Below, piece by piece: positions 4,501 through 25,708 of a stretch of 25,708 nucleotides of DNA; position 1 is the stretch's first letter; every line of letters starts with the position of its first letter. Position numbers and translations under genes: made by a program. The notes under the pieces were generated by a model, which worked only from the letters and a program-made list of their open reading frames with translations, was not told where the DNA came from and ran no database searches. The stretch comes from Thermoproteota archaeon. GTDB lineage: Archaea > Thermoproteota > Nitrososphaeria > Nitrososphaerales > Nitrososphaeraceae. The DNA is taken from the NCBI GenBank assembly GCA_046731995.1, contig JBKPMB010000294.1, positions 1 through 25,708 on the forward strand. The letters are read 5' to 3'.

Positions 4501-4512
4501 TTTTTATTTTTT
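4501..4512 (+). terminator. Oligo-T tract (tttttatttttt), a candidate archaeal intrinsic terminator
   Basis: T5-A-T6 lies 32 nt downstream of the stop codon at 4467-4469. Archaeal RNA polymerase terminates at oligo-T. Confidence 0.35.
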
Positions 4513-4739
4513 GAAAAACTATACAAGATAAATTCTAGACGTGAGCGACAGATGTATGTTATAAATTGAGTGAACGATTTTGACTGAGAATGCAGTTTGA
4601 AGAGAGACTATTCAAGGTTAATTGTCTACGGCCGTTCTTTGGTTTGAAAAGCTAGCATCTTTTGTAAGGACAACTCAGGGAGCAAATTTCCGAGTCAATT
4701 TCTTGAATTTTTAGCAGCAACCGAAATTGACTTTTTTAG

Positions 4740-6087: not shown

Positions 6088-7134
6088 ATGAACCACACAT
6101 GCTTCGCTTCTACAGTATTTTCAGTTGTAGTTAGCATATTACTTTTTGGTGTTTGGAGCAATGTCTATGTGTATGCACAACAATCATCTTCATCATCTAC
6201 ACCAATGGCATCTCTCCAACCATCACCAGCTGGTAGTAGTATCGCAACGATATCTCCACAACTCAAAGCAAAAATATGCGATCCTAGTAATCCAAGTCTC
6301 AAGGCAGTTAACACAACTGAATCGCTTATATGTGGTATTCCAAAAACAATAAAATCACCTGCATTATCATCACCGGCGCCGTCTACATCCTCATCAGCAG
6401 TTTCATCAACAACGCCGCAACAAACAACAACTACAAAGCCTATTGCGGCTGCTGCTCCAAAACAACAGCAGCAAATTGCAACTACAAATAATAATAATAC
6501 GAAAGCGGTTTCAGGAACAACTGGCGCAAAGGTCGCAACAATATCTCCAGTCGGCAATACCAGCAACAGATCATTATCATCAGCATTATCATCGCCACCA
6601 CCATTCCCTATAGTACCGCAACTAAACACTATAAGTCAACAACAACAGCATCAACAGCCACAAGTACTAACAACAATAAGCAATGGCACGGCTGGACAAA
6701 GCTACACATTTCAAACTTCAAATTCCCCACTACTGGGCTCTGGTAAACTAGTATATCTTGGCTATAATGGTGGTAGTACTGGTACTAGTAGTACTGATAG
6801 TAGCTCGCCAGACAAGAGCACTACAGATACCAAATCAAGTCATGATAGTGGCACTAGTACCTCAAAAGATAAGGAGAGATCCGATAACAACAAATCATCT
6901 GGTCATAAAAATGATGGTAGCAGCTCTCATACCAGCAGCTCTGATAAGAAGTCATCTGGTCATAAAAATGATAGTCACAAGCCATCATCATCATCAAAAA
7001 CAACATCTAAAGCAAAGGATCATACGCATCATGACAACAATGAAAGTAACAAAGCAAAGAAGGAGGGCAGCTCAAAAGGAAATAGTAATCACAAAGGTGG
7101 AGATAGCTTCTTTGATGGCGATCCCTTTTTTTAA
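6088..7134 (+). CDS. Secreted, intrinsically disordered Ser/Thr/Gln/Asn-rich protein with a His/Lys/Ser-rich C-terminal tail (mucin-like)
   Basis: The signal peptide is MNHTCFASTVFSVVVSILLFGVWSNVYVYAQQ. The rest is long S/T/Q/P low complexity. KSSGHKND is repeated (tcatctggtcataaaaatgat appears twice, 57 bp apart, around 6895 and 6952). The protein ends FFDGDPFF. Confidence 0.7.
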   Translation: MNHTCFASTVFSVVVSILLFGVWSNVYVYAQQSSSSSTPMASLQPSPAGSSIATISPQLKAKICDPSNPSLKAVNTTESLICGIPKTIKSPALSSPAPSTSSSAVSSTTPQQTTTTKPIAAAAPKQQQQIATTNNNNTKAVSGTTGAKVATISPVGNTSNRSLSSALSSPPPFPIVPQLNTISQQQQHQQPQVLTTISNGTAGQSYTFQTSNSPLLGSGKLVYLGYNGGSTGTSSTDSSSPDKSTTDTKSSHDSGTSTSKDKERSDNNKSSGHKNDGSSSHTSSSDKKSSGHKNDSHKPSSSSKTTSKAKDHTHHDNNESNKAKKEGSSKGNSNHKGGDSFFDGDPFF

Positions 7135-7427
7135 TTAGAGTGATGACCTTTAATTATGACATTAGCCACAAATTTCTACTCAGTTTCTCAGTATAGTGGA
7201 GATTCTGACTTTGCATCAAATCACTCTGTTCTCCATTCCAAGTGACTTGGACTTGAAGTAGTTTAATTTGCGGAACACTAGTTAGGCTAATTCGCTACCA
7301 TATCTAAAATGATAAAAGCTTTAGTGCAAGAGTAAGAAATAGAACAGTTAACTATGGTCTGAATAATATCTATCTGATTAATATCTGTTACTTCGATATT
7401 TCATATTAAAAAGATATAGTTCAAAGT

Positions 7428-8166: not shown

Positions 8167-9393
8167 ATGAACAACAGGAATGCTCATCTAGAATCCAACA
8201 AAGTTCTCAAGTATAATGTAGAATGGTTGTTTCATTCCGGTATTAGAATAAGGAATGGTCCTAAAAAAGGAGCAATGTACGGTTGGAAAAATCTGAATCC
8301 GCCCTCATATCCATTCATATATAACGAGATAACAGGTTATGCGATTACTTCTTTCTTGTATATATACTCCGAACTAGGAGAGCCCGAAGCCCTTGAGGCT
8401 GCCAAAGATTCTGCATATTGGATAGTAAAAAATATTCGTAGCTCATCATCATCCTCATCATCATACCTTCTACCTGCAGGAAGTATCGAAACTCATAGCT
8501 TTAATCAAAAAGGCGATTTATCAAATCAAATTTACGCATTTGATAATGGCATGATCATAATAGGGTTGGTAAATCTATACAAGGTTATCAATGATACAAT
8601 TCTTTTGAAATATGCAGAGAACATGGCAAAATCATTAATTGAAAAATTTTTTGATGGATCAAAGTTGATTGCCGTCTTAGACAGGTTGTACAGACCAATA
8701 ACTAATAACACCAATCTTAATGATAGTAGTAGTGGTAGAGGTAGAAATGATATTAAATGGTCAACCGTCTCCGGTGCATATCATTGTAAACTATCATTAG
8801 CTTTATTGGATCTGTCGCTGCTAACAAAAAATGACATGTACTCTAAAGTATCTAATTCGCTATGCGAATTTGCACAAAAATTACAGAAAGCTGATGGCCG
8901 ATTTGCAACTAACACTAACTTAGAGACTATGACATACCTACATCCTCATCTGTATGCCTGCGAGGGACTCATTTACGCTGGAGTAAGGCAGCATAATGAC
9001 GCTTATTTTGCAGCAGGCCTTAAAGGCATCAGATGGGCGGCAAAACAAGTTAATTCATTGACTGGAGGGTTGCCAAGGATGATAGGTGGAGAATTTATAG
9101 AACAGTCGGATTGCATGGCTCAACTGCTCCGCCTGTTAATTCTATGTTATTTTCGAATAGAAGAGTCGATAGAAGAGCCATCACACAACCTAAGAGATGT
9201 TATTGAAAAACTACATTTCAGACTTTTAGATTTCTACATATCAGAAGGAAAAGACAGAGGAGCGATAAAATACCATCTTTCTTTAGATACTGCTTGCAGC
9301 TGGTGTACTATGTTTACTATGCAGGCATTACTGCTTTGGAAGAAAAGAAAGAAATTCCAAAACGTACAGAAATGGATAGATTACTTTATCTAA
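8167..9393 (+). CDS. Cytoplasmic protein, probably alpha/alpha-toroid fold (terpenoid-cyclase / prenyltransferase / C5-epimerase-like superfamily); exact function unknown
   Basis: 408-aa ORF with no signal peptide. It has recurring helical-hairpin signatures: EITGYAITSFLYIYSELGEPEALEAAKDSAYWI, YAFDNGMIIIGLVNLYKV, YHCKLSLALLDLS, HPHLYACEGLIYAG. A poly-Ser insert (SSSSSSSS) lies at about 8440-8466. The fold call is pattern recognition only. Confidence 0.6.
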   Translation: MNNRNAHLESNKVLKYNVEWLFHSGIRIRNGPKKGAMYGWKNLNPPSYPFIYNEITGYAITSFLYIYSELGEPEALEAAKDSAYWIVKNIRSSSSSSSSYLLPAGSIETHSFNQKGDLSNQIYAFDNGMIIIGLVNLYKVINDTILLKYAENMAKSLIEKFFDGSKLIAVLDRLYRPITNNTNLNDSSSGRGRNDIKWSTVSGAYHCKLSLALLDLSLLTKNDMYSKVSNSLCEFAQKLQKADGRFATNTNLETMTYLHPHLYACEGLIYAGVRQHNDAYFAAGLKGIRWAAKQVNSLTGGLPRMIGGEFIEQSDCMAQLLRLLILCYFRIEESIEEPSHNLRDVIEKLHFRLLDFYISEGKDRGAIKYHLSLDTACSWCTMFTMQALLLWKKRKKFQNVQKWIDYFI

Positions 9394-10712: not shown

Positions 10713-11183
10713 CTAATAGTTTGCTTTTACTTCGATGCCCCCTCCAGCTATTCGGTTCTCGCTCATATTGGCATAAGGATAGTTGTTATATTGGTCATGT
10801 ACGTAACGAGTAGTATCGTCATCGTGTGTTGTTATAGTATCTGTACTATTATAGAGCTTTTCTAGACGTGTAACTTGTTTTTCGTCTTCTCCTTCAACTT
10901 TTGATAACACCCGTTTGTATGTTCCGTCAACTATCAATAGTATTTTTTTAGTTTCAATTGGTTGCGTATATCTGTCATGTGAAAAAACATGAGATTTAGG
11001 AAATATATATTCAAATATCCATAAATAACCTGGGCTTGAAATTATCGTTATATCGTCACCGTTAGCACATTTGTTATTACTGTTACTGTTGTTGCTGCTA
11101 GCATAGCTATTGTATTGTATATCATATCCAACGAATGCTGCAGCCTCAAATTGAGGAAGCATGATATTTGTTGATATCAACAT
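10713..11183 (-). CDS. Hypothetical membrane-anchored/secreted protein (N-terminus probably frameshifted)
   Basis: 156-aa ORF. In-frame codons upstream of the ATG (up to 11228) encode SVIAICVIFGLVATT, which completes a TM helix with MLISTNIML. An ATG at minus 11260 (MTTTTIVCNNNQS...) is in another frame. A poly-N/S insert (SSNNSNSNNK) is present. Confidence 0.5.
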   Translation of the reverse strand: MLISTNIMLPQFEAAAFVGYDIQYNSYASSNNSNSNNKCANGDDITIISSPGYLWIFEYIFPKSHVFSHDRYTQPIETKKILLIVDGTYKRVLSKVEGEDEKQVTRLEKLYNSTDTITTHDDDTTRYVHDQYNNYPYANMSENRIAGGGIEVKANY

Positions 11184-11447
11184 GGTTGTAGCTACTAAAC
11201 CGAAAATTACACAAATTGCAATGACTGATTATTATTGCAAACGATGGTGGTGGTAGTCATTTTTGAAGTTATTATATCTTTTGCAACGATGCTAGTTACC
11301 TATCTTTTATTTACCATTCTATAAGAAACTAGTCTATCTAATTAAATATAACTCCATGAAGAAACTGTTCACATAAATTCGGTTTTATTAATCTGAAATG
11401 AAAAATATACTTTCCATACTGCTTATATATTATGTCTATACTTTAAT

Positions 11448-12305
11448 ATGAAAGTGACATCAGTAGCTGAAACTAGCCTTGACACTAAATCCATAATGCA
11501 AATTTCAGCAATAATTCCGGTTTATAATCAAGAAGCAGAGGTCCCTTTTTTATTAAAAAGGCTTAAAGAAGATCTCAATTCAACTTTACTAAATTATGAG
11601 ATTATCATTGTAAATGACGGCAGCCGCGACAACACCTTGGAAATTCTCAAAAAAGAAGAAGAATTAGATGAGCATATACGAGTTATTTCTTATCCTCAAA
11701 ATAAAGGCAAAGGATATGCTGTTAAAAAAGGAATTATGTATACACATGGTGATATAGTCCTATTTGTGGACGGAGATCTTGAGATCTCCCCTGATGCGAT
11801 AAAAGATTATGTAAAAGAACTTCGGAGTTGCGATCTCGTAATTGCCTCCAAAAGTCATCCATTATCCAAGGTAAATGTCCCTGCATCTAGGAAACTTCTA
11901 AGTAGAGCATTTAACTTTTATGTAAAAGTTGCTACGGGTATAAAATTAAAAGATACTCAAAGCGGTTTGAAAGCAGGGAACGGTAATGCCTTACGAAAGA
12001 TTTTCAATATTATTTGTATCGATCGTTACGCATTTGATGTTGAATTACTTGCTATTGCTACAGCTCTCAATATGAGGATAAAGGAACTGCCTATCGAAAT
12101 AACTCTTACTCATAGGTTCAAGATGAATGATATCGCAAGAATGTTTATAGATGTCATCGCAATTTCCCATAGGCTCAGAATCAAGCTGTGGTATCACAAG
12201 CAACTTAAACTATTGCTACAACATGGCATAGAAGAATCTGGTGGTAAAAAGTTAATTGTAAGTAAAAATGAACAAGTTGGCTACAAGAATAATGGTACCT
12301 ATTAA
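11448..12305 (+). CDS. Glycosyltransferase family 2, dolichyl/polyprenyl-phosphate hexose synthase-like (DPM1/AglD-like)
   Basis: The evidence is ISAIIPVYNQEAEVPFLLKRL, YEIIIVNDGSRDNT, FVDGDLE (DxD) and QSGLKAG. An alternative start is ATG 11496. Confidence 0.85.
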   Translation: MKVTSVAETSLDTKSIMQISAIIPVYNQEAEVPFLLKRLKEDLNSTLLNYEIIIVNDGSRDNTLEILKKEEELDEHIRVISYPQNKGKGYAVKKGIMYTHGDIVLFVDGDLEISPDAIKDYVKELRSCDLVIASKSHPLSKVNVPASRKLLSRAFNFYVKVATGIKLKDTQSGLKAGNGNALRKIFNIICIDRYAFDVELLAIATALNMRIKELPIEITLTHRFKMNDIARMFIDVIAISHRLRIKLWYHKQLKLLLQHGIEESGGKKLIVSKNEQVGYKNNGTY

Positions 12306-12816: not shown

Positions 12817-14748
12817 CTATCGCTGACTGGTAGGAATTATCCTATATATCGCTTCCTTCGCTGGACTCTTGTATGGATAACCATGATCCATTTGTATAGA
12901 AAGAACATATAGATATCCATCAGGTCCAACTTGTATATCCGTAATTGGACCGAATCCATAACCAAATAGCATGTTTCCATAACGAAATGTTATATTATGC
13001 ATAAAATCAGGGTTTGATACTAGGTTGTTGTTATTATTATTTGTCCTTGCCGTAATTTGGCTTATACGTATTACATCAAACAAAGTAACGGCTTCCTTAC
13101 CTGGTTGGGAAGACCATCCAGCGTTTAATATTGGACGTATTTTTGCTATGTTTGCAGGTATTATCATTTCACATCTATACTCATGCCATTCCAATGGTCC
13201 ATCGGTACCTGCAGGACATTGTGTCTTAAGCGGGTTCCACGTCTTTGAAGTTTCATCATATCCTTCTATAGCTATATGGGATGCTCTAGCAAACTCATTT
13301 AGTTTCATATGAGTTATTATTTGATATTTTTCATCTGGAATAACATCTATTTCTTTACCAATAATATATGACCATGTATCATTATTAGTCAAGCTTGTAA
13401 GGACCTGAAAACTGGTTTTGATATTTTGCCATCCATTAGTGGAGTTGACTATACATTCAAAATTATATACACAACGCCTAAGGGGATCAGTCCAATTTGC
13501 AGGTAGCTGTGCTTGACCATTATATACTGTCTTGTTTGAGATCGATGAGTCATTTAGGACTAATCCATTTCTTTGATTATTTAGTTTGAAATGGTAGAGA
13601 TTACCATTATTAAAATCTCCTATAAACATATCATTTTCATATTGTTTTCCAAATTTACTGGAGTTCAAGAATTTCAATGCAGTTGGACCGATGGTCTGAT
13701 TCCATATAAGCTCCGGTGCTCGGTATTTTCCTTTTCCTCCAAAGTCTACCAACCCTCTTTCTGGATTTATTGCTACTGGCCCCTCCTGACGAGGAGGAAA
13801 GACACCATTTGGTTTCCACATGCCTTGTACTTGCATCCATCCACTGTTAAACCCGGGTTCAACAAGGTTAATCTCATCTCCAAAATACGGCCCATTTTCT
13901 GTATCCCACAATTTTTTAGTTATAGGGTCAAAGTCAAATCCAAAACTATTGCGTATACCGTATGCATAGTATAGGTTTAGAGGATAATTGTCACCAATAA
14001 TGCCTTTTCCAACTGGTTGACCGTTTTGAGTAATTCTAAGTATTCCGCTTGTTCCATCAGGATCTGTTCCGTTTTGAAAGTTCTGAGCTTTAGTTCTATG
14101 GCGACGCAGATCACCGATCACAAGATAGAGATCATTGTCTGGACCAACCAGCATTCTACCACCATTATGCTGGGGTCCTGGAGTCGCTGGAAGGCTTAGA
14201 AGCGGTTTGGGATTAACTAATTGATTATTTAGTAATTCATATCTATAAAGGCAATTGCATTTTGGTTTTATACCTGCAGCATCATCACCAGTTTTTCCTA
14301 CACCAGATTCTGTAAGGTACAAGAAAACAAATGTAGTTGCAGGTTGAGTGTCATTGGTCTTGCTTTTTATGCTACCGACAGGAACTCCTAGCATACCCCT
14401 TTCTTGTTCTGTTGCTACATTAACATGGAGCAATGGTTTAGAATGTAATGTACCGTTCACAATTCTCTCCACTGTTCCATTATTTTTTTGTAACAGCAAG
14501 ATATCATTTGGACCCAAAAATGCCATAGATGAAGGGAATTTGTCTCCCTTGAATACCGTCTCTACTTTTAAGTTGGGATCAGCGATAACAGGCGGATGAT
14601 CAGTTATCGTTTTACCAGTTACTGGGGATCCCGAAGATGAAGAGGAAGGGGTTTCTTGGGCAAATGTCAAATGAGAAATTTGGACCAACGTAGCAATAAT
14701 AATGCTGACTCCAATCGTTGTCACTATGACCAGATTTCTCTGCAGCAT
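12817..14748 (-). CDS. Secreted glucose/sorbosone-dehydrogenase-like (GSDH, PQQ-type) beta-propeller with a jelly-roll (CBM4_9-like) module inserted before the last blade
   Basis: GSDH signatures are LKVETVFKGDKFPSSMAFLGPNDILLLQKNNGTVERI, HNGGRMLVGPDNDLYLVIGD, SGILRITQNG, YAYGIRNSFGFDFDPITKKLWDTENGPYFGDEINLVEPGFNSGW, and the terminal blade ITDIQVGPDGYLYVLS...AIYRIIP. The signal peptide is MLQRNLVIVTTIGVSIIIATLVQISHLTFAQE, from ATG 14748. The track ORF starts at TTG 14814. Confidence 0.85.
   Translation of the reverse strand: MLQRNLVIVTTIGVSIIIATLVQISHLTFAQETPSSSSSGSPVTGKTITDHPPVIADPNLKVETVFKGDKFPSSMAFLGPNDILLLQKNNGTVERIVNGTLHSKPLLHVNVATEQERGMLGVPVGSIKSKTNDTQPATTFVFLYLTESGVGKTGDDAAGIKPKCNCLYRYELLNNQLVNPKPLLSLPATPGPQHNGGRMLVGPDNDLYLVIGDLRRHRTKAQNFQNGTDPDGTSGILRITQNGQPVGKGIIGDNYPLNLYYAYGIRNSFGFDFDPITKKLWDTENGPYFGDEINLVEPGFNSGWMQVQGMWKPNGVFPPRQEGPVAINPERGLVDFGGKGKYRAPELIWNQTIGPTALKFLNSSKFGKQYENDMFIGDFNNGNLYHFKLNNQRNGLVLNDSSISNKTVYNGQAQLPANWTDPLRRCVYNFECIVNSTNGWQNIKTSFQVLTSLTNNDTWSYIIGKEIDVIPDEKYQIITHMKLNEFARASHIAIEGYDETSKTWNPLKTQCPAGTDGPLEWHEYRCEMIIPANIAKIRPILNAGWSSQPGKEAVTLFDVIRISQITARTNNNNNNLVSNPDFMHNITFRYGNMLFGYGFGPITDIQVGPDGYLYVLSIQMDHGYPYKSPAKEAIYRIIPTSQR
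13055..13510 (-). other. Inserted jelly-roll / carbohydrate-binding-like module (copy in the beta-propeller protein)
   Basis: LPANWTDP...TWSYIIGKEIDVIPDEKYQIITHMKLNEFARASHIAIEGYDETSKTW...LEWHEYRCEMIIPANIAKIRPILNAGWSSQPGKEAVTLFDVIRISQI aligns along its whole length with 23511-23975 on the plus strand. Confidence 0.8.
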
Positions 14749-14938
14749 AATAATATTGGAAACATTAGAGAATCTAAGAGATATATACATGTGTACTTTC
14801 GATACATCTACCAATGGTAGATATCAAAGAAGGACTTGTTTAGTAATTTCAATTAAATTAGAGCGTGTCTCTCCCGCTTTAGTGATTTTATGAAGGAAGG
14901 ATTAGCACCCTCAATGTCATATTTGCTTCTTCTTGTTA

Positions 14939-16555
14939 TCAGGCAAAGACTCTCTTACTTGCTGTCCAATATACTGTAAAACTACCAGGTGATGGTGGAG
15001 TTGTAAAGGTTACATCAAATGAAGATGAATTGATATTAGTAACCCTAGGAATACCACCTGATGTAGTGGATGGATTTACGGTGACAACTGTAGGCGTTAT
15101 ATCCAAGTTGTGATTGATTGTAAATGATGTATTTGACCCGTTACCAGTTAATGAAGCAGCACCTTCATTATTGGTACGATACCCTTCATTATCCCATACT
15201 CTAACATTTGAGTTGGGACCACTGAAGGTGTCTAAAACAAAAGTAGACCGCAAAATCGGATTGCATATTTGATTACCATGAAACATAATGTTAGCACACC
15301 CACCGAATATTCTGAATGCATAGTTGGATGTGTTTGCTTGGCTGTTGTCTTCTTGGTGAAAAAAGTTGCCGTGGACGTTCATGTTGTTGCATCCTTCTAC
15401 GTAACACAAGCCTCTATCACCACCTGTTCCATTACTGGCATTAGAATCTCGTAGTTGGTTGCAGCTCATAATTACCGGACCGCTGACATGTACCAGATGT
15501 ATCAAAGACCACTGACTGTTAGACATTACATTATTTTGGATATTTACCTGCTGAATGCTACCGTTAGCAGGATCGTTGTTAGGGTCTCCGTTTATCCACA
15601 ACCTGCAGTATTTCATAGCATTGTTTGAAAATATGATGTTCCTAAATGGAGTTCGTCTAAAACCACCAGTTGACCAGTTAGTTCCACCAAATAATACTGT
15701 ACCGCCTCTCATGGCATTGTTTGACATCACTATACGGTCGTATACCCCGCCTCTAGGCTCTACCGTGATAAAATCAGCACCGATGTCGGTATCCTGACGC
15801 ACAAACACATTTCCAGTTACGACGTAATTTTCGATACCACCCGATGTAAGACTGCTACCAAAAATGCTGCCGCCAATGCCTGCGGTGCGCTTATCAAAGA
15901 AGTTGTTTGTGACATATGCATGTTCTGTTGATCCGATTGCGACCTGATCTTGTAAACTCGTTTTATCAAACCAGCAACTATCAATCCATATTCCAAGCGT
16001 TTGGAAAGTATGACAGCCCACACCGTTATTGCCGGCGTTCATAAAATGGACTCTTTGTACCCAGTTTCTTGTAGGTGAACCATTATACAATTGACCGCCA
16101 GACAAACCTTGACCGTCAATAGTAAAGTCAGATGCGCTGCCATGTGTCCACCATCGCAACATAGTAAATGGCCTTGCCGCAGGATCGTGCTTTATCACTA
16201 CAGAATTCATAGACTCGCCCCTCAAAGTAATGAAAGCATCAGGGTATGTTTGCGAGCCAATCGCTCTTTCCGCGTTTAGTGTGTATGTTCCAGCCTTTAG
16301 ATAAACAAGCCCGCCTGCTTGTTGTACTGCATTGATTACTGAACCAAATAGCGATGTAGTTTCAGCAGATGTAGCTGGAGCTGATGCAGTTGAGCAGTAA
16401 AGTGGGCCTGTTATTCCGTTTACTGCATTCACTCTGCCACTATCGTCTATGTAAATTGTATAGGTTGGTACTTTGATAGAATTTGTGTCGACGCTACCAC
16501 GGCTACCAGTACCAAGCTCGTCAACATAATCATCAATGTCAGTTTTTGGCGGCAT
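14939..16555 (-). CDS. Right-handed parallel beta-helix protein (pectate-lyase-3 / tailspike-like N-terminal domain, PbH1 repeats, C-terminal beta-sandwich); no signal peptide
   Basis: VINAVQQAGGLVYLKAGTYTL is the pectate_lyase_3-type opening. Repeated NN-turn motifs are present: TNNFFDK, TGNVFVRQ, SNNAMRGG, SNNAMKYC, IQNNVMSNS, HGNFFHQ, HGNQICN. The C-terminus is SLTGNGSNTSFTINHNLDITPTVVTVNPSTTSGG...FDVTFTTPPSPGSFTVYW. The N-terminus MPPKTDIDDYVDELGTGS is hydrophilic. Confidence 0.85.
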   Translation of the reverse strand: MPPKTDIDDYVDELGTGSRGSVDTNSIKVPTYTIYIDDSGRVNAVNGITGPLYCSTASAPATSAETTSLFGSVINAVQQAGGLVYLKAGTYTLNAERAIGSQTYPDAFITLRGESMNSVVIKHDPAARPFTMLRWWTHGSASDFTIDGQGLSGGQLYNGSPTRNWVQRVHFMNAGNNGVGCHTFQTLGIWIDSCWFDKTSLQDQVAIGSTEHAYVTNNFFDKRTAGIGGSIFGSSLTSGGIENYVVTGNVFVRQDTDIGADFITVEPRGGVYDRIVMSNNAMRGGTVLFGGTNWSTGGFRRTPFRNIIFSNNAMKYCRLWINGDPNNDPANGSIQQVNIQNNVMSNSQWSLIHLVHVSGPVIMSCNQLRDSNASNGTGGDRGLCYVEGCNNMNVHGNFFHQEDNSQANTSNYAFRIFGGCANIMFHGNQICNPILRSTFVLDTFSGPNSNVRVWDNEGYRTNNEGAASLTGNGSNTSFTINHNLDITPTVVTVNPSTTSGGIPRVTNINSSSFDVTFTTPPSPGSFTVYWTASKRVFA

Positions 16556-16871: not shown

Positions 16872-17648
16872 TCATTTCTCAATTATACCTACCACTATTC
16901 CAGTAGCTGTAGCGTTAGAGTGATCATATTTTGCATCTTTCGCAGCTACCCAGTCCACTTCTTGCCACTTGTATCCAGAAATTCGTTTAAGGTAGTATTG
17001 TTTATCAAACCTCAGTATACCTTTGCTCAATAAGTTGTCCATGTGAGGATTATATCCAAGGCCGATTATAACTAGAATCTGTCCCCCGGGACCTAAAATT
17101 CTCTTCAAGTTTTGAATTGCTCGGATAATCTTCGTAGGATCCTCTGGTATTTCACTCCAACCCACGTGCTCTAATACTAAAATACTCACAATTAGATCAT
17201 ATTGCTTGCCAGGATTAAAATCAACTACATCCTCATTGATGACGCCATCAGTAATTTCATACTTGTCTAAAATATCATGGTTGACCTTAAAAACATAAGG
17301 GAGAACATTACCTACTTCAAGAATTCTTTTATTTTGCCTCTGGTATCTTTTTACTACCTCCCAAACTATTGGTAATGCGACCAATCTCTCATTTTTCCAA
17401 CTTGGTGCTGCCATTTCGATTCTAGGATGGAAAAAGTAATGATATGTATTTCCTTGAAGCTGAAAAGTATCTGATGATTTAAATCTCTTATAATACCACA
17501 GCCAAAAGCGATCTGTAACCATTGTAATACCAATATGGAAAACACGATAAAGACCCTTAGTACGATAGGCTTCCATTGCTTCTGCCAAAAGTTGCCTGTA
17601 TCCTCTTGTTACTCGCGCAGGTTTGTAGAAATGCCGACTGGAACTCAT
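16872..17648 (-). CDS. Class I SAM-dependent methyltransferase-like protein
   Basis: The evidence is RILEVGNV (degenerate motif I), YDLIVSILVLEHV (motif II/III region) and LKRILGPGGQILVIIG (post-motif). It sits inside the glycan cluster, divergent from wecB. Confidence 0.65.
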   Translation of the reverse strand: MSSSRHFYKPARVTRGYRQLLAEAMEAYRTKGLYRVFHIGITMVTDRFWLWYYKRFKSSDTFQLQGNTYHYFFHPRIEMAAPSWKNERLVALPIVWEVVKRYQRQNKRILEVGNVLPYVFKVNHDILDKYEITDGVINEDVVDFNPGKQYDLIVSILVLEHVGWSEIPEDPTKIIRAIQNLKRILGPGGQILVIIGLGYNPHMDNLLSKGILRFDKQYYLKRISGYKWQEVDWVAAKDAKYDHSNATATGIVVGIIEK

Positions 17649-17767: not shown

Positions 17768-18883
17768 ATGACTTTTGCAATAATAACCGGTACTAGACCA
17801 GAAATAATAAAGCTTTTCCCCATCATGAAATTGTTTTCTGAAAAAGCAGTTGATTATAAGTTTATTCACACGGGTCAGCACTTTGATTATGAATTGTCCC
17901 TCAAGTTTATCGAGGAATTTGGAATTCGTAAACCAGACTACAATATCGTACTAAAAAAATGTGCCGAACTACCTCAAGAACAACAAACTGCTGAAATTAT
18001 GATGAAAATTGGCTATATCTTTCGGAATGAATTTTTCCCCTCACTGATATTGATTGAAGGCGATACAAATAGCGTTCTAGCAAGTGCGTTAACGGCTATT
18101 AAAGCCAATATTCCTATTGCACACCTTGAAGCAGGCTTAAGAAGTAATGATTGGAAGTCATTTGAAGAACACAATCGACGCATTGTAGATTGTGTTGCTG
18201 ATATACTATTTGCTCCAACTAGCGAATCTGCAAATAACCTAAAGATAGAGCATGTTCATGGTGATGTGCACATAGTAGGAAATACTGTGATGGATGCTAT
18301 CAAGTTATGTCTGCGATCTGATGAGAATTGTAGTGATGACAATAACAATATTCTAAAATATATTGAATCAAAAATTAATAGTCACTTTGTCCTAGTAACT
18401 CTGCACAGGGCAGAGAATGTGGATAACCGAGATTTCCTAAGGCATGTATTGACTGCATTATCTAATTCAAAGCATAACTACGTTTTTCCTATGCATCCTC
18501 GAACTTCAAAGAGAATTCGAGAATTTGGATTAGAAAATCTTATAACAAAGCAAATTATAGTTACTAATCCGGTGGGTTATTTCGATTTTTTGAGGCTACT
18601 TAGAATGTGCATGTTTATAATTACTGACTCAGGTGGAGTGCAGGAAGAAATAACGTCCCCATCTATAAACAAACGTGCAATAGTGTTGCGTAAATATACT
18701 GAAAGACCGGAGTCGATTCAGACTGGTCATGCTATATTATGCAAAGCTGAAAAAAATGAAATTCTTTCTGCAATTAAAAAAATCCAAACGGCTACAGAGA
18801 TTGCTACATTTCAATCTCCATACGGTTCAGGAAACTCAGCAGAAAAAATAGCTTCAATTCTCGAAAAAACGTCTTACGTATAA
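17768..18883 (+). CDS. wecB: UDP-N-acetylglucosamine 2-epimerase (non-hydrolysing)
   Basis: The evidence is IITGTRPEIIKLFPIM, HTGQHFDYELS, GDTNSVLASALTAIKANIPIAHLEAGLRS, EEHNRRIVDCVADILFAPT, TLHRAENVD, HPRT and ITDSGGVQEE. Canonical family motifs occur along the full length. Confidence 0.92.
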   Translation: MTFAIITGTRPEIIKLFPIMKLFSEKAVDYKFIHTGQHFDYELSLKFIEEFGIRKPDYNIVLKKCAELPQEQQTAEIMMKIGYIFRNEFFPSLILIEGDTNSVLASALTAIKANIPIAHLEAGLRSNDWKSFEEHNRRIVDCVADILFAPTSESANNLKIEHVHGDVHIVGNTVMDAIKLCLRSDENCSDDNNNILKYIESKINSHFVLVTLHRAENVDNRDFLRHVLTALSNSKHNYVFPMHPRTSKRIREFGLENLITKQIIVTNPVGYFDFLRLLRMCMFIITDSGGVQEEITSPSINKRAIVLRKYTERPESIQTGHAILCKAEKNEILSAIKKIQTATEIATFQSPYGSGNSAEKIASILEKTSYV

Positions 18884-19241: not shown

Positions 19242-20201
19242 TCACTCATAGACAGAGGTATCGCCATGATCATCTTTATCGTGTTTGTATTTGGAAGGAA
19301 TTTTAACCTCCTTATAATTCATTTCCATTGATCTTTCACTATCTGTGAATCTTCTATAATTAGTAGTCTGTTTGTTTGTATTATGTAACGAACGTGCGTT
19401 CTTCCAAATTAAGAAAAGATCTCTTCCCATTGTTGTAGTTTGTTTAATGATGTCAATTTTTGATCCCTCATCATGACTCCACTTAATTGGTACCTCTTTG
19501 ATTCGTAATCCGTGTATAGAGGCAATCACTAATAGCTCAGAGTCAAAAGCAAATCCGGTAGTTTTAATCTCTGGTAGAATTTTTAATACTTCGTTTCTTC
19601 TAAGTATCTTCAATCCACACTGAGGATCGTAAATTTGCAATTCCGACAATAGTCTGAAAGCGCTAGAGTAGATATGTGAAAAAATTGCCCTAGTCATTGG
19701 TCTTTTAATTGGGGGAAGATTTCCACGCAATGCTCTAGAGCCCACCACAATGTCGTAGTTATCTATGTGATCAAGTAGTCTCTGAATTTCTGAAGGATCT
19801 GCTGATAAATCAGCGTCCATATAAGCAATATAATTGCCACTTGCCTTCCTAGTCGCATTCATTAGAGCTCCGCCTTTCCCCATTCGAGCCTTGAGCGATA
19901 TCAGTTTTATCCTATTATCTTCAGACTGGAAGTCATCTACAATTTTAGCTGTATTATCTACACTGCCATCTACTGCAACGAGTATTTCGAAATCCCATTG
20001 CTCTTCTATACAGTATTGCAGTGTTCTTGTTAGACATTTTCTTATTCTTTTTTCTTCATTGTATGCTGGTATAATTATGCTAATGCTCAAATCAGGATAT
20101 GTACTAGCATGTTTGTCAGTGTGGCTTTTTTTATTGGAAATACTATTATTTGTGAGATCATGTTCTTTTAGATGACGCCTTTTTAAGGGATCTTCTTCCA
20201 C
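19242..20201 (-). CDS. Glycosyltransferase family 2, dolichyl-phosphate hexosyltransferase-like
   Basis: The evidence is ISIIIPAYNEEKRIRKCL, FEILVAVDGSVDNTAKIV, YMDADLSADPSEIQRL and PQCGLKIL. The start is either GTG 20201 (with a basic, His-rich 37-aa extension) or TTG 20090 directly before the conserved core. Confidence 0.85.
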   Translation of the reverse strand: MEEDPLKRRHLKEHDLTNNSISNKKSHTDKHASTYPDLSISIIIPAYNEEKRIRKCLTRTLQYCIEEQWDFEILVAVDGSVDNTAKIVDDFQSEDNRIKLISLKARMGKGGALMNATRKASGNYIAYMDADLSADPSEIQRLLDHIDNYDIVVGSRALRGNLPPIKRPMTRAIFSHIYSSAFRLLSELQIYDPQCGLKILRRNEVLKILPEIKTTGFAFDSELLVIASIHGLRIKEVPIKWSHDEGSKIDIIKQTTTMGRDLFLIWKNARSLHNTNKQTTNYRRFTDSERSMEMNYKEVKIPSKYKHDKDDHGDTSVYE

Positions 20202-20390: not shown

Positions 20391-21539
20391 TTATCGATTA
20401 TGCAAAAGTTTTATAATTTCTGTTAGCTGTTTTACTGAAATTTTATCCCAGTTTAGCATACTGGTAACCAAGGCTTTTGAGTTAGCGGCCAATGATTTCC
20501 GCTTTTCATCATCTGCAATGAGATTGGTAATAGACTTCGTCATTTGTTCCTTGTCACCTACTTCTACTTTAATTATGTCTTTACCAAAGATCTTGTATGC
20601 AGATAGATCATAACAAACAACTGCCAATTCACAAGCCATTGCTTCACTAACTGCTATACCCCACCCTTCTTCATAGCTTGGGGAAACAAATATTTTTGCA
20701 GATTTAATAGTAGCAATCTTTCGTTCTCCAAAAAGATAGCCGGTAAACGTTATATTTTTATCTAAAGCTTTATTTTTAACGGTTTTTACCAAATCAGAAT
20801 ATACTGGCCCATCACCAATAATTACGAGTTTTGCGTTTGGGAAGGATTTTAATACTTTTTCCCATATTGCAGGTAAATCATAAACTCCTTTTTTTTGATC
20901 TATTCTACCACAAAAACAAGCATCAAACTTTTTCCCATTTACTTTTACAGAATCTATAAGATTATGTTCTACTCCATTATCTGTTACAATGATTTTGTTA
21001 GCCTGAAACCCTTTGGCAATCAAGTCATTCTTTATGTCAGGATTTACTACAAAAATTAAGTCTGCCTTCTTACATAGAAATAAGCTCATCTTCTCATTTA
21101 TTAAGTTTATATTACTCCATATCCCTTGTTTATAAGTCCGAAAGGGTCTCAGTATGTGATGTACATAAACAACTAATCTGGATTTCAATCTTCTACATAA
21201 AATCAATGCAGGCAACACATCATAGAGCAGATGCGATGATGCTATAATCACATCTGGGCTTTGTTTGAATCTGAAAAGTGAACTCCGTAGAATTCGGAAC
21301 AGGTAGAATAGTGATTCTCTACTATGACCTCTTACTTCCTTTTCGTACGAAGAAAAATAAATATTGTAGTCATCAGCTGATAATAATATATTTTTAGAAA
21401 ACATGTAACCAGACTTGGGAATAATAACAGATACACTGTGCTCCTTATTCCATCTCTCCATCACATGTAATATGTGATATTCTCCGCCGGCAATCGTCTT
21501 TACGCCCCATCCATTAGCCATGACTAATATCCTGAACAC
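20391..21539 (-). CDS. Glycosyltransferase family 4 (GT-B, retaining type)
   Basis: FRILVMANGW...GGEYH is the N-terminal GT4 opening. SPSYEEGWGIAVSEAMACELAVVCYD is the E-x7-E motif. The GTG start at 21539 is preferred because the conserved RILV lies upstream of the first ATG. Confidence 0.85.
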   Translation of the reverse strand: MFRILVMANGWGVKTIAGGEYHILHVMERWNKEHSVSVIIPKSGYMFSKNILLSADDYNIYFSSYEKEVRGHSRESLFYLFRILRSSLFRFKQSPDVIIASSHLLYDVLPALILCRRLKSRLVVYVHHILRPFRTYKQGIWSNINLINEKMSLFLCKKADLIFVVNPDIKNDLIAKGFQANKIIVTDNGVEHNLIDSVKVNGKKFDACFCGRIDQKKGVYDLPAIWEKVLKSFPNAKLVIIGDGPVYSDLVKTVKNKALDKNITFTGYLFGERKIATIKSAKIFVSPSYEEGWGIAVSEAMACELAVVCYDLSAYKIFGKDIIKVEVGDKEQMTKSITNLIADDEKRKSLAANSKALVTSMLNWDKISVKQLTEIIKLLHNR

Positions 21540-21923
21540 GTTGAGGCTAGAGTATGAGTCCTTAATTATTATTCTTCTTAAAGATCCATTAAAAATTTAC
21601 CACAATATAATTTACCAAGATTTGAGAACATGGATATATATGAAGGAAACTGAAATTTCGTACCTTTTCTTGGTCTGATAACTAGCAATAGAATGCCATA
21701 ATTATAAAAATGCGAAAGGGAATAAAAATGGGGAAGAAAGGAGGAACTATCTTTATCATTCCCATCGTTTGTACTTTTTTACTACTTTTTGATGATATCA
21801 TGACAACCAGATTCGCGGTTATCAAAAGACGAGTAGATGTGCAAACTACTATTGATTGTGTAGCTTTGATTCTTCTACAATCATAGGTTTGATATATTTT
21901 TAGCCATTATCAAAACTTTATTA

Positions 21924-22277
21924 TCATTTAACCATTTTCCATCTTTTCTCTCTTAATAATTCAACTACTAAGCATGAGGTTCCAACTATCAATAACCAGT
22001 AACTAATTATAACTAGCGGATTTGCGGAATATTTCATGACTGTCAATACTCCTACAATAAACAGCAATAATATTGCAGAACCTAAAGGGATCCTACCATC
22101 AAATCTCAGAGTAGCAAAAATAGGGATGAGAATTATAAATATTAATAATGTAGTGATTTCGTTTTTTTGTAGAAGAAAGTATGATATAATAATAGACGCA
22201 GTTATCAGAATGAAAGGAATTGTTTTCTTAACAAATTTTTTGGATACCTGCATTATATGAATATCCATTAGCTCCAA
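21924..22277 (-). CDS. Small integral membrane protein (3-4 helices), function unknown
   Basis: The track ORF is 117 codons from TTG 22277. ATG 22268 or 22253 (MQVSKKFVKKTIPFILI...) are more plausible starts. Hydrophobic segments are separated by short loops, and the C-terminus is basic (REKRWKMVK). Confidence 0.5.
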   Translation of the reverse strand: MELMDIHIMQVSKKFVKKTIPFILITASIIISYFLLQKNEITTLLIFIILIPIFATLRFDGRIPLGSAILLLFIVGVLTVMKYSANPLVIISYWLLIVGTSCLVVELLREKRWKMVK

Positions 22278-22410
22278 TACAGCACCATCTTGATTTAAAG
22301 TATAACACTCTGCTTAAATTCGCTATTTCAGGATTTTCGAAGATTAAATGGGTTGTATCAATGGAAGCAGAGCCTACAAGTACTTAAAATATAACTAAAT
22401 TAGCTGTGCA

Positions 22411-22420
22411 TTATACTATA
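22411..22420 (+). promoter_or_regulatory. TATA-like box (ttatactata) centred about 26 nt upstream of ATG 22442
   Basis: The spacing is consistent with a leaderless transcript of the giant membrane-protein gene. Confidence 0.3.
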
Positions 22421-22441
22421 ACAAAAAGGGTTGACTAGGCT

Positions 22442-25400
22442 ATGAACTCCTATTTGGTGAATATAAAGAGATACGATTATTTAATTGCCTCAATAGGCTA
22501 TTTCCTAATAGCATTATTCATTTTAAATAGGATTTTATTTTTCTCTCCTGGTACAATTGGATTTTTTCATGACTGGCCAATAGGTCCTTATCCTGAAATG
22601 AACCGATCCTATGCAAATGGTGGCCTCTATGTTTGGAATTCCCAGGTAGGAAACATACTTTTCCCTACTGACTGGATATTTCGTCTAAGTCTTCTTCCAT
22701 TTTCGTTTCTGAATGGAGAAATTCTTACTAAAGGGATATTACTTTTGGTCATAACTCTAAGTGGGTTTGGTGCTTTTTACCTTGGAAAGCAGCTTAAGCT
22801 AAGTCCGTTTTCTTCATTTGCAGCCGGAGTTTTATTTATTTTCTCATCGATAGTATTTACAAGAATCGTAGCTGGGCATATTTATTATCTTATCTCATAT
22901 TTTCTGAGTCCATTTATAGTTGCTTTCTTTCTGAAAGGCAGAGAAGAGGTTAAGAAAAATAGACAACGGGATAAAAAGGAAGTAAATTATAAAAACTTCA
23001 AGTACTTTGTAATTGCGGGTATTTTAACATCCTTTGCAGCTATTCAGCTCCAATTTTTAGTAATGATATTTCTTGTTTTATTAGTCTTTACTGTTCTTGA
23101 CTTTGGAAGAATTAAAAAATCTGCTATAGGTCTGATAATAGTTTTTTCTATCGCATCCTTAGTTAATTTGTCTCCTATAATACCTAGCGACGCCTTATCA
23201 ACCAAGTCTTCTTTATCGCATTTTAATCCCACTACTCTTTTATCATTCGACGAGGTGACTCATGCGTCTGATTTAACAAAAAGTTTAAGATTATTAGGAT
23301 ACGAGCTTCATCCATATAGCTATACAGAGATAGGTACTTCAGATGATCATTTAATTGAGTATGATATTAAAAGAATAATGGAAAATAAACCAAATCTGGT
23401 AGCAAATCCTAATTTTGTATTAGTAGGTGGTAGTGGTAGTAGTAATAATAGTAGTAGTAACACTAGCAATAGTAGTAATAGTAATAACAATACTAGTCAA
23501 TCAAAGCTGCCTATAAATTGGACTGATCCCTCTGGAAATTGTAATCACATTTTTAAGTGTATAGTTTTTCAATTTAAAAAAACTACTGCTGGATTGCAAA
23601 ATAGTACAAATAGCTTTCAAATCTCTACAAATAAAACATCTCCTAATCAAAAAACTTGGTCATGGATTTATGGTAAAGAAATAAACGCTAATCCTGGAGA
23701 ACAATATGGAGTCATAACTCATATGAAATTAAACGAGTTTGCTATACGATCTCATATAGGCATAGCAGGATATAATGATACTTCAAAGGTGTGGATGGAA
23801 ATCATACAATGTCCTTCAGGTGGTAATGTGCAGCCAGAATGGCATGAGTACAGCTGTGCGATAACAATACCAAATGGCATTACCAAAATAAGACCAATAT
23901 TAAATGCTGGATGGTCTTCTCAGCCAGGTAAGGAAGCTATCACTTTGTTTGGTGCTATGTGGATAAGTAAGATAGACTATGCAAGTGGTATCATCCCATC
24001 ATGGATATTTTCTTTAGATTTTTTGATTCCTATAACTGGATTCTCAACTCTCATTTTTAGAAAAGACAAGTATACGCTTTCGTTTGCTATGATATCTTTG
24101 ATTGGATTATTCCTTTTGAAAGGACCTAATCCCCCGTTACAGAATATTTTTAACTTTATTTTTATTCACGGTTTTTATATTTTTAGAGAAGTTTGGCACG
24201 TCGCTTTCTTGTATGGATTTGGTATATCATTTTTAATCGTATTTTTTCTGGAGAAAATAATAACAATAACGTCTTCATTTTCTAAGCTTGGGAGTTATTC
24301 AAATATCTATAAGCATCAGAGGCATCAACATCATCATAATAATTTTTTTCATAAATTAGCATCCTCATCATTATTTTTCTTCTACTACGTAAATGATAAA
24401 CTCAAAAATTATTACAAAATTATTATATCTTCCTTTTTAATTTCTCTTATAGTAATTTCTAATGGATATCCTTTATTGCTAGGAAATTTTGGAGGATATC
24501 TGCAGACCTATGATTTTACAAAAGATTATCATACATTATATAACAATCTTCTTACAAATAGTACTTTTAATACCTTAATGCTTCCTTCGCTTGGTCCAAT
24601 TCAATATGATGGTTTAAAGTTATCAGGCCTAGATCCTTTGAGTACCTATTCTTCTAGCAACATATTCTATCAGGATTATGATGGTGTATCCTATCCACTA
24701 TTGGGTACAATTACTTGGTTACATACCGTTATGCAGGAGAACAAGACTAGCAATCTAGGAAAGTTTCTAAGTGGTTTTGGAATAAAATATGTAATTTTAA
24801 GAAAGGATTTTGTATCCAATTATCCACTTTTTACCACATTAGGAAATTACGGTCCATTTCTAAAAAGGTGGTATGCATCTCTTGAACCATTTTTGGATGC
24901 TCAAAATGATCTAACCGTGTTGTCGAATACACCCCATTATAAAATATACGAGAATAGCAATAATGCAAAAAAATTTTTTATCCCTTTAATAGCTACAAAA
25001 GGAATATATGATTATCGAAGTCTGCTTTATATCTCTAATTTTACTTCACTTTCTAACATAGCAGTATACCCATCAGATTATGGCGACAAGGCTTACACGA
25101 AATTTGATAATTCAAGGGATGAAAAATCCACCTATGATTTTGAAGATTTAGGAAAGTATGCCACATCGTACACTGCAGCTAAAGGATGGACAACCAATAG
25201 AGATTGGTTTGGATATGATTATTTATTGGCGTCCCGAGTTCACACAGGTGCATTTAGTACTGTACGCAATTCTACATTTTCATTTGATTTTCCTACTCCG
25301 CATAAATATGAAAATAAACCTATTGAAATGTGGATGAGGGTTTTGACTTGGCCCAATGGAAAGACTGTAAGCATCAGTATTAATGGAAAACAATCTCGGT

Positions 25401-25708
25401 ATTCATTATTCTCTTTATATCCCAATTTTTCTTTCATCAAGATTTTTGATGGAAGGTCCACTGATGGATTATATCATTTATCAATTACAAATATCGTAGG
25501 AAGTAATTATATCGAAGGCATTTATATGAAGGAAAAAAGTCATAGCGGAGATCGCAAAGATATAAATAACATTTTCTTGATTGACACACAGAACAAACCA
25601 AATCTGGTAGCAAATCCTAATTTTGTATTAGTAGGTGGTAGTGGTAGTAGTAATAATAGTAGTAGTAACACTAGCAATAGTAGTAATAGTAATAACAATA
25701 CTAGTCAA
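22442..25708 (+). CDS. Partial (3'-open) gene for a large polytopic membrane protein of at least 1089 aa. It looks like a GT-C-type glycosyltransferase (AftD/DUF3367-like architecture) carrying the jelly-roll module in an external loop. It is not in the supplied ORF track.
   Basis: I translated every codon from ATG 22442 to 25708 by hand and found no stop. TAG at 22436-22438 closes the frame upstream. Hydrophobic blocks lie at about 22442-23200 and 24000-24480. Soluble parts contain FHDWPIGPYPE, GNFGGYLQTYDF, MLPSLGPIQYDG, GIKYVILRKDF and HYKIYEN. The GT-C assignment is an inference from architecture. Confidence 0.85.
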   Translation, partial: MNSYLVNIKRYDYLIASIGYFLIALFILNRILFFSPGTIGFFHDWPIGPYPEMNRSYANGGLYVWNSQVGNILFPTDWIFRLSLLPFSFLNGEILTKGILLLVITLSGFGAFYLGKQLKLSPFSSFAAGVLFIFSSIVFTRIVAGHIYYLISYFLSPFIVAFFLKGREEVKKNRQRDKKEVNYKNFKYFVIAGILTSFAAIQLQFLVMIFLVLLVFTVLDFGRIKKSAIGLIIVFSIASLVNLSPIIPSDALSTKSSLSHFNPTTLLSFDEVTHASDLTKSLRLLGYELHPYSYTEIGTSDDHLIEYDIKRIMENKPNLVANPNFVLVGGSGSSNNSSSNTSNSSNSNNNTSQSKLPINWTDPSGNCNHIFKCIVFQFKKTTAGLQNSTNSFQISTNKTSPNQKTWSWIYGKEINANPGEQYGVITHMKLNEFAIRSHIGIAGYNDTSKVWMEIIQCPSGGNVQPEWHEYSCAITIPNGITKIRPILNAGWSSQPGKEAITLFGAMWISKIDYASGIIPSWIFSLDFLIPITGFSTLIFRKDKYTLSFAMISLIGLFLLKGPNPPLQNIFNFIFIHGFYIFREVWHVAFLYGFGISFLIVFFLEKIITITSSFSKLGSYSNIYKHQRHQHHHNNFFHKLASSSLFFFYYVNDKLKNYYKIIISSFLISLIVISNGYPLLLGNFGGYLQTYDFTKDYHTLYNNLLTNSTFNTLMLPSLGPIQYDGLKLSGLDPLSTYSSSNIFYQDYDGVSYPLLGTITWLHTVMQENKTSNLGKFLSGFGIKYVILRKDFVSNYPLFTTLGNYGPFLKRWYASLEPFLDAQNDLTVLSNTPHYKIYENSNNAKKFFIPLIATKGIYDYRSLLYISNFTSLSNIAVYPSDYGDKAYTKFDNSRDEKSTYDFEDLGKYATSYTAAKGWTTNRDWFGYDYLLASRVHTGAFSTVRNSTFSFDFPTPHKYENKPIEMWMRVLTWPNGKTVSISINGKQSRYSLFSLYPNFSFIKIFDGRSTDGLYHLSITNIVGSNYIEGIYMKEKSHSGDRKDINNIFLIDTQNKPNLVANPNFVLVGGSGSSNNSSSNTSNSSNSNNNTSQ
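23387..23500 (+). repeat. 114-bp perfect direct repeat, copy 1 (encodes KPNLVANPNFVLVGGSGSSNNSSSNTSNSSNSNNNTSQ)
   Basis: A character-by-character comparison with 25595-25708 shows 114/114 identity, in the same reading frame of the same ORF. Confidence 0.95.
23511..23975 (+). other. Jelly-roll / carbohydrate-binding-like module (copy in the giant membrane protein)
   Basis: LPINWTDP...TWSWIYGKEINANPGEQYGVITHMKLNEFAIRSHIGIAGYNDTSKVW...PEWHEYSCAITIPNGITKIRPILNAGWSSQPGKEAITLFGAMWISKI. The pattern (W...PG..Y....vK...........W.ey...i.iP.....ir..L) fits CBM4_9/galactose-binding-like domains. Confidence 0.8.
25595..25708 (+). repeat. 114-bp perfect direct repeat, copy 2; the window ends at its last base
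   Basis: Identical to 23387-23500. Confidence 0.95.

Follow-up and report, generated by a model that had tools for sequence, protein, structure and literature searches.

The mycobacterial alpha-(1->3)-arabinofuranosyltransferase AftD (PDB 6W98, Pfam family PF11847) was described in the AftD paper as a glycosyltransferase (GT) with an 11-transmembrane (TM)-helix GT-C core, two helices fewer than in other GT-Cs, and with two juxtamembrane helices between TM1 and TM2. The same paper reported external carbohydrate-binding modules (CBMs), a C-terminal return to the membrane and a long flexible external loop 4 (EL4) between TM7 and TM8, which was proposed to order over the active site upon substrate binding. 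D41 of AftD, located shortly after TM1, is essential, and homologs of the enzyme were reported across Actinobacteria only. A second kind of described system is the three-component extracytoplasmic glycosylation system (GtrA/GtrB/Gtr*; Citrobacter ORF12/14/15; PMC11127046), in which a polyprenyl-phosphate sugar synthase and a flippase work with a CBM-bearing GT-C to modify an extracytoplasmic glycan. Here, we analyzed a contig of 25,708 nucleotides from a Thermoproteota archaeon (JBKPMB010000294.1; the whole contig is referred to as the window, and all coordinates are window positions), which ends within a gene for an AftD-like GT-C membrane protein. The product of this gene is probably a GT-C glycosyltransferase that acts on the extracytoplasmic side, with a dolichyl phosphate (Dol-P)-linked sugar as the candidate donor and a surface glycan as the putative acceptor. 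The assembly and decoration of the cell envelope are poorly understood in ammonia-oxidising archaea.

The reading frame from ATG 22442 to base 25708 comprises 1089 codons with zero stops, in agreement with the initial annotation of this DNA. An in-frame TAG (22436-22438) is located immediately 5' of this ATG, which is therefore the first possible start, and the start sequence ATGAACTCCTATTTG is also kept in the closest ortholog locus (L001). The G+C content of the gene region is ~33%, from which ~0.075 stops per random codon were calculated, and the calculated chance of 1089 stop-free codons is then ~1e-37. The open reading frame (ORF) listing for 22278-25708 contained only four short ORFs (52-73 aa). 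This listing excludes by design the frames that run off the source sequence, so the gene was unlisted because its frame runs off the window end, exactly as had been presumed. Moreover, the complete ortholog P0001 (1367 aa) showed 70% identity over 99% of the query length. The ratio of nonsynonymous to synonymous substitution rates (dN/dS) against the L001 ortholog was 0.21 for the whole gene and ranged from 0.14 to 0.38 across all sub-regions, with values of 0.18 for the TM core and 0.25 for the inserted module described below. Therefore, the gene is real, functional and under purifying selection rather than decaying. An Rfam search of 21500-25708 identified no RNA family.

Sequence comparison alone did not place the protein in a described family. 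The query gave no Pfam match at E up to 1, including PMT/PMT_2 (PF02366, PF13231), and no significant NCBIfam match, with faint ones to MmpA and archaeal STT3. Similarly, neither the query nor a 56-sequence family profile had a significant match in PDB sequence searches. The fold was evaluated using two structure models, one of the query (AlphaFold2 on the 56-sequence alignment; mean pLDDT 72.8, pTM 0.70) and one of P0004, a complete homolog of 1157 aa that is 60% identical to the query and carries no loop insertion (pLDDT 81.1, pTM 0.74). Foldseek against PDB ranked AftD 6W98 first for the query model (E 3.4e-6, ~1170 aligned columns), with EmbB/EmbC below it (E 1e-3 to 5e-3, TMq 0.15-0.16). 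For the P0004 model, three AftD entries were matched over the whole length (E 1.1e-16 to 3.1e-14, TMq 0.42-0.44), and yeast STT3 (TMt 0.50) ranked below AftD. The AftD-type GT-C resemblance first proposed for this gene thus holds for fold and architecture in both models, and the Foldseek comparison suggested at that time returned AftD as the best match, with EmbB, EmbC and STT3 also matching at lower rank.

The proposal of an AftD/DUF3367-type protein did not extend to membership of the Pfam family. PF11847 (GT-C_AftD; gathering cut-off 26 bits) did not match the query, and five relatives gave colinear scores of 13.5-25.4 bits, none reaching 26 (P0047, 25.4; the L007 ORF, 23.7; P0162, 22.9; P0141, 18.9; P0014, 13.5). 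These near-threshold scores would fit remote homology to AftD. As the scores for all Pfam and NCBIfam GT-C models fall short of their cut-offs, the family is distant from AftD rather than part of the AftD family proper. A Pfam link to bona fide GT-C_AftD through the distant relatives was set aside, since the matches were all sub-threshold, and the precomputed PF19830 (DUF6311) labels on some homologs were not used, as they were not reproduced in a scan of P0001.

An alternative to be weighed against the AftD-like reading is an AglB/STT3-like oligosaccharyltransferase, which would take a glycan assembled beforehand on dolichyl (pyro)phosphate and attach it to proteins. The NCBIfam archaeo_STT3 model (TIGR04154) does match residues 111-266 weakly (E 0.0024), and the similarity of the P0004 model to yeast STT3 points in the same direction. 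However, the archaeo_STT3 score was 16.3 bits against a cut-off of 450, the WWDxG motif is not present in the query sequence, and AftD ranked far above STT3 in both fold searches; on these three grounds STT3/AglB identity was rejected. In addition, the model has 11 TM helices, not 13, and the CBMs suggest a glycan acceptor instead of a peptide. An enzyme of the oligosaccharyltransferase kind is therefore highly unlikely.

The conservation of individual residues was next compared between close and distant relatives. Within the close family, D44, W45, G48, P49, E52, D77 and W78 are near-invariant, and D44 is found in 93% of the close relatives. Among the relatives with <40% identity (n=51), D44 was retained in 96%, W45 and K97 in 92% each, and G145 and P157 in 100%, whereas E52 and D77 were found in 43% and 22%, respectively. 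Because the conservation of D44 persists while that of E52 and D77 fades, the HDW aspartate is a strong candidate, and the conservation pattern suggests that it is likely the catalytic or a metal-binding residue. D44 also provides the conserved acidic residue in the first external loop (EL1) that characterizes GT-C enzymes. The initial annotation had singled out FHDWPIGPYPE as a candidate acidic loop; the aspartate and tryptophan of its HDW part are largely retained by the distant relatives, and the glutamate of its PE part, E52, is a feature of the close family only. By distance from the N-terminus D44 is similar to AftD D41, an equivalence that is positional only.

The query model contains 11 TM helices (TM1, residues 11-33, followed by TM2-TM11), and hydropathy agrees. 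As in other GT-C proteins, the N-terminal domain is polytopic and has a long EL1 with two juxtamembrane helices in the model (Table 1). Lys/Arg-rich loops alternate along the protein (117-121, 166-187, 220-226 and 540-544), and this pattern fits an N-in topology with EL1, the TM7-TM8 loop and the C-terminal region predicted outside. Of the 23 N-X-S/T sequons, 21 fall in predicted external regions, where the Cys-rich modules are located as well. The long external TM7-TM8 loop spans residues 244-519 and includes R283, which is conserved in 99% of the close family and 43% of the distant relatives. Farther along the chain, R582, W585 and H586 of the FREVWH motif are invariant in the close family, and an invariant NGYP motif (674-677) opens the soluble region. 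All four architectural blocks that had been described from the sequence are present, namely FHDWPIGPYPE (42-52), the linker with its module, the second helix bundle and the soluble domain. The His-rich loop assigned to the second bundle is likewise present, as a stretch at ~634-646 between TM10 and TM11; it is poorly conserved, has low model confidence and, by the charge pattern, is probably cytoplasmic.

One residue of the core departs from its relatives. Residue 136 is serine in the query (codon 22847-22849), and proline in 94% of the distant relatives and in the close-family consensus. The model retains a helix break at 133-136 despite Ser136. We suspect that the proline at this position is the TM3-kinking proline described for AftD.

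Table 1. Coordinates of the GT-C gene, its encoded segments and the neighboring genes (window positions).
Feature	Position	Strand	Basis or remark
3'-truncated AftD-like GT-C membrane protein gene	22442..25708	+	Open frame, upstream TAG, P0001 match, dN/dS 0.21
TM1, aa 11-33	22472..22540	+	Hydropathy; model helices 11-27 and 29-33; N-terminus predicted cytoplasmic (K9, R10)
EL1, aa 34-91	22541..22714	+	Short helices 51-59 and 78-83 (model); HDW motif
Asp44 codon GAC	22571-22573	+	Candidate catalytic residue; HDW motif in EL1
TM2-TM7, aa 92-243, conserved GT-C core	22715..23170	+	K97, G145, Y153 and P157 highly conserved
TM7-TM8 external loop, N-part, aa 244-314	23171..23383	+	Equals AftD EL4 by TM order
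Ser/Asn-rich linker 1, aa 315-355	23384..23506	+	Holds repeat copy 1 (23387-23500); pLDDT <50
Inserted beta-sandwich module, aa 356-515	23507..23986	+	CBM4/16/22-like; four conserved Cys; nested in TM7-TM8 loop
TM8-TM11, aa 520-679	23999..24478	+	FREVWH motif; His-rich loop 614-655
Extracytoplasmic soluble region, aa 680-1034	24479..25543	+	Alpha/beta domain, then beta-sandwich; within full-length AftD alignment
Linker 2, aa 1035-1089	25544..25708	+	Holds repeat copy 2 (25595-25708); contig end
Small membrane protein, 117 aa, 3-4 hydrophobic segments	21924..22277	-	Divergent from GT-C gene; hydropathy
GT4 glycosyltransferase	20391..21539	-	Conserved neighbor
GT2 like polyprenyl-phosphate sugar synthases	19242..20201	-	PF00535; candidate maker of lipid-linked donor
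UDP-GlcNAc 2-epimerase	17768-18883		
Methyltransferase	16872-17648		
Membrane-anchored GSDH-type (glucose/sorbosone dehydrogenase-like) beta-propeller with CBM-like module	12817..14814	-	
Second GT2 like polyprenyl-phosphate sugar synthases	11448-12305		

The extent of the missing 3' part was assessed with complete orthologs (P0001, 1367 aa; P0002, 1362 aa; P0003, 1331 aa), which extend beyond linker 2 and contain, in this order, another copy of the module, a small beta-sandwich and a single hydrophobic helix at the C-terminus. By this comparison, about 280 residues would be absent from the window copy. The jelly-roll module noted earlier in the external loop is indeed a beta-sandwich (aa 356-515) and could now be identified as CBM4/16/22-like: Foldseek matched it to CBM4-2, CBM16 and CBM22 (TMt 0.51-0.62), and the C-terminal copy of P0004 gave CBM matches up to TMt 0.78. 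Four cysteines are near-invariant in the module. The window copy has no Pfam match to PF02018 (CBM_4_9); homologous modules of P0125, P0129, P0135, P0139 and P0152 passed this model (26.0-54.1 bits vs. 25.9).

The module is widespread, being present in 197 of 264 retrieved proteins. Besides the GT-C family, it is carried by GSDH-type dehydrogenases (including the one encoded in the window), PMT-family GT-Cs and alginate-lyase-like proteins. The dominant architecture of the GT-C family has the module near the C-terminus only, and a module nested in the TM7-TM8 loop was present in 8 of the ~120 retrieved members. Only in a small subclade has the C-terminal module thus been copied into the TM7-TM8 loop, at a site that corresponds by TM order to AftD EL4, a loop of functional importance in that enzyme.

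The window ends with 114 nt (25595-25708) that repeat positions 23387-23500 exactly. This direct repeat had gone unnoticed in the initial annotation. Both copies encode the linker KPNLVANPNFVLVGGSGSSNN...TSQ, and, given the identity of the window end to the upstream copy, the contig broke inside the repeat. Module copies of the same protein share 66-76% identity, which equals or exceeds the identity of same-position copies across orthologs; together with the exact repeat, this similarity suggests ongoing gene conversion between the internal and C-terminal module copies. Since a perfect repeat is a typical break point for an assembler and the contig stops exactly in one, the internal module or the gene end might be regarded as an assembly artefact. 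However, the order of N-terminal domain, module, TM helices, soluble region and module is shared by three independent metagenomic orthologs (P0001-P0003) with diverged copies (66-76%), which excludes such an artefact for the internal module. In addition, the internal module is bounded on both sides by in-frame unique sequence and has a dN/dS of 0.25. An assembly error of this kind is thus extremely unlikely.

The gene context was compared across six archaeal loci, in which the GT-C protein is 39-70% identical; two of these loci (L002 and L003) are near-identical contigs and not fully independent. The GT4 gene was found in 6/6 loci (41-70% identity), and a module-bearing GSDH was also present in 6/6. 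The GT-C gene is followed directly by the GSDH gene in L001 (GT-C, 1066-5169; GSDH, 5352-7271), in L002/L003 (L002, 13716-18119) and in L004 (13442-15347). Orthologs of the GT2 closest to the GT-C gene (48-52%) were found beside the homologs in 4/6 loci (L002, L003, L004 and L006). The small membrane protein is kept beside the orthologs in two loci, L001 (519-866, - strand; 67%) and L005 (~4211-4531; 42%). It has no Pfam or NCBIfam match, including GtrA or MATE. As a putative partner of the GT-C protein, it might act as a flippase or anchor the TM-less GT2 in the membrane. In the window, the GSDH and two more GT2s are located farther off from the GT-C gene.

The two GT2s at 19242 and 11448 matched ArnC, GtrB and the Pyrococcus Dol-P-Man synthase (DPMS) in PDB, which supports the earlier description of neighboring Dol-P-type GT2 enzymes. 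Their best NCBIfam models were PgfS, ArnC, Dol-P-hexose transferase and PpgS, all scoring far under the equivalog cut-offs, and no TM helix was predicted in either protein. Furthermore, a Wzx-like flippase gene is present in L001, and in the distant relative P0222 a Wzx-type Polysacc_synt domain (5-261) is fused upstream of the GT-C domain (415-673). By this natural fusion, the family is connected with the export of lipid-linked glycans.

The GT-C gene had been called the only candidate polymerase or transferase for the lipid-linked sugars. It is the only intact GT-C gene there, but 10716-11225 (- strand) encodes the C-terminal ~160 aa of a PMT_2-type GT-C, 40% identical to residues 320-476 of the product of L002 gene 20344-21774, and related loci carry an intact PMT_2 gene nearby. 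Lacking the membrane domain, the 10716-11225 ORF would be either a gene remnant or a stand-alone domain. A separate ORF at 6088-7134 (+ strand) encodes 348 aa with an N-terminal hydrophobic segment, likely a signal peptide, and a long Ser/Thr/Pro/Gln-rich mucin-like body with no Pfam match; it is plausibly a heavily glycosylated surface protein.

Such Ser/Thr-rich surface proteins, for example the mucin-like product of 6088-7134, would be the targets if the GT-C protein were a protein O-glycosyltransferase of the PMT/TMEM260/PMT_2 type. Consistent with this alternative, PMT-family proteins of related archaea bear the same CBM-like module, P0126 gives a weak TMEM260-like match, and the window encodes a secreted protein rich in Ser/Thr. 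Nevertheless, we consider it improbable: the query has no PMT or PMT_2 Pfam match, AftD leads the structural matches by many orders of magnitude, and the separate PMT_2 gene beside this GT-C family in related loci suggests distinct roles. PMT/PMT_2 identity was accordingly not favored, PF02366 and PF13231 having given no match at E up to 1.

The observations of a real gene under purifying selection, an AftD-like fold and topology, conserved residues, a traceable domain history and synteny point to extracytoplasmic transfer of a Dol-P-linked sugar to a surface glycan as the most likely function of the AftD-like protein. Catalysis as such is inferred, as are the lipid carrier, the sugar and the acceptor, and the mechanism is drawn by analogy with AftD/Emb and the three-component extracytoplasmic systems. 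A cytoplasmic GT2 of the 19242-20201 type would load the sugar onto dolichyl phosphate, and the lipid-linked sugar would then be flipped outward, possibly by the small membrane protein. The GT-C core, which would be formed by the eleven N-terminal TM helices, would pass the sugar to the surface glycan with Asp44 acting in catalysis or metal binding. The acceptor glycan may be held by the CBM-like beta-sandwich modules, of which the nested one lies in the loop that corresponds by TM order to the flexible EL4 near the active site of AftD.

As the enzymatic activity is a prediction only and several CBM-like modules are present, the protein could also be a non-enzymatic, membrane-anchored glycan-binding scaffold or adhesin that uses a GT-C chassis to tether polysaccharide through its modules; Ser136, where 94% of the distant relatives have the helix-kinking Pro, would be compatible with a loss of this kind of activity. 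We regard this possibility as quite improbable, because D44, W45, K97, G145 and P157 are conserved across the relatives with <40% identity, the dN/dS of the TM core is 0.18, and the gene is conserved beside sugar-activating GTs.

A broader proposal, which we advance tentatively and hold to be unlikely as a whole, is that the GT-C protein, the module-bearing GSDH, the GT4 and the Dol-P-type GT2 form a dedicated pathway for building or remodelling a surface polysaccharide in soil Nitrososphaeraceae. The four-cysteine module would then serve as an 'address tag' directing several enzymes (the GT-C, the dehydrogenase, PMT and lyase-like proteins) to one polymer, and its TM7-TM8 copy would hold the acceptor over the active site, possibly in a processive manner. 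If true, this would be a glycan-envelope assembly system without a described archaeal counterpart.

Several other ORFs of the window were also inspected. The product of 14939-16555 (- strand; 538 aa) has no family match and no TM helix and belongs to a 24-member cluster of hypothetical proteins; its Gly/Asn repeats suggest a beta-helix. For the ORF at 8167-9393 (+ strand), glycoside hydrolase family 47 was matched barely above the cut-off (23.2 vs. 22.9 bits) and over residues 132-259 only. A multicopper oxidase with a C-terminal plastocyanin/cupredoxin domain and an N-terminal hydrophobic segment is encoded at 1776-3395 (+ strand). Multicopper oxidases were discussed as possible cell-surface modifiers in these archaea in a paper on biofilms of ammonia-oxidising archaea, which does not mention the GT-C family. 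Among named sequences, those closest to the UDP-GlcNAc 2-epimerase are only 56% identical and come from Nitrososphaeraceae or Thermoproteota metagenome-assembled genomes (MAGs); at this distance, Ca. Nitrosocosmicus was not retained as a candidate host. The multicopper oxidase-plastocyanin fusion and the relatives in these MAGs indicate that the host is an uncultivated, ammonia-oxidiser-like archaeon related to Nitrososphaeraceae.

The GT-C family itself is large. Homologs comprised 120 word-indexed proteins and 544 representative clusters at E <1e-3, and most members are hypothetical or unnamed where a source name exists. At least one member is bacterial; it stems from a Ca. Baltobacteraceae MAG and shows 26% identity across the N-terminal domain. 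A contig scan with two peptide patterns only yielded three loci, a count that says little on taxonomic breadth. Literature searches found no description of this GT-C family. GT-Cs with CBMs are well known as a kind of enzyme; the family itself is uncharacterised and falls outside the curated models. This family of 544 representative clusters gains a testable assignment as an AftD-like enzyme using a lipid-linked sugar, for which catalytic residues and conserved partner genes can be put forward as candidates. Moreover, an archaeal family built on the same general plan, together with distant bacterial relatives (L007), suggests that architectures of the AftD type have an older origin and a wider distribution than the reported occurrence in Actinobacteria implies.

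Compared with the three-component systems (PMC11127046), the window likewise encodes a GT-C, GT2s resembling GtrB, ArnC and DPMS, and a small conserved membrane protein. In contrast to those systems, the GT2s of the window have no predicted TM helices, the small protein gave no match to the GtrA or MATE families, and the conserved set includes a GT4 and a GSDH-type dehydrogenase, both of which the three-component systems lack. With regard to CBM families 4, 9, 16 and 22 (PF02018), their beta-sandwich fold is shared by the inserted module and the C-terminal ones (TMt 0.51-0.78), whereas the window module differs by its four conserved cysteines and by having no Pfam match; the module is also lineage-specific and common to GT-C, GSDH, PMT and alginate-lyase-like proteins. 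The EmbA/B/C arabinosyltransferases (PDB 6X0O, 7BVE) similarly combine the GT-C fold with external CBMs that bind the acceptor polysaccharide, but their fold match was much weaker and their TM count and domain order differ.

AftD remains the best structural match, covering essentially the whole chain. In both proteins, a GT-C core of 11 TM helices is combined with a pair of juxtamembrane helices in EL1, a long loop between TM7 and TM8, and a large external region with beta-sandwich CBMs before the chain returns to the membrane at the C-terminus, and in both an acidic residue follows soon after TM1 (D41 in AftD, D44 here). However, the sequence identity is 9-10%, and the PF11847 scores stay under the gathering cut-off. 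The host is archaeal here and mycobacterial for AftD, and no decaprenyl-phospho-arabinose pathway genes were recognised among the ORFs of the 25.7-kb window. The lipid carrier in an archaeal host would be dolichol, not decaprenol. The return to the membrane also differs: AftD has a five-helix C-terminal bundle that binds acyl carrier protein, whereas the homologs have one C-terminal TM helix, the complete P0004 ending in a single helix (1106-1156) and P0001-P0003 in one terminal hydrophobic stretch. Finally, a CBM is nested within the TM7-TM8 loop here, which is unusual and might shed light on the positioning of polymeric acceptors by GT-C enzymes. The protein family is therefore distinguished from AftD by three differences, namely the single C-terminal anchor, the nested TM7-TM8 CBM of this subclade and the conserved dehydrogenase partner.

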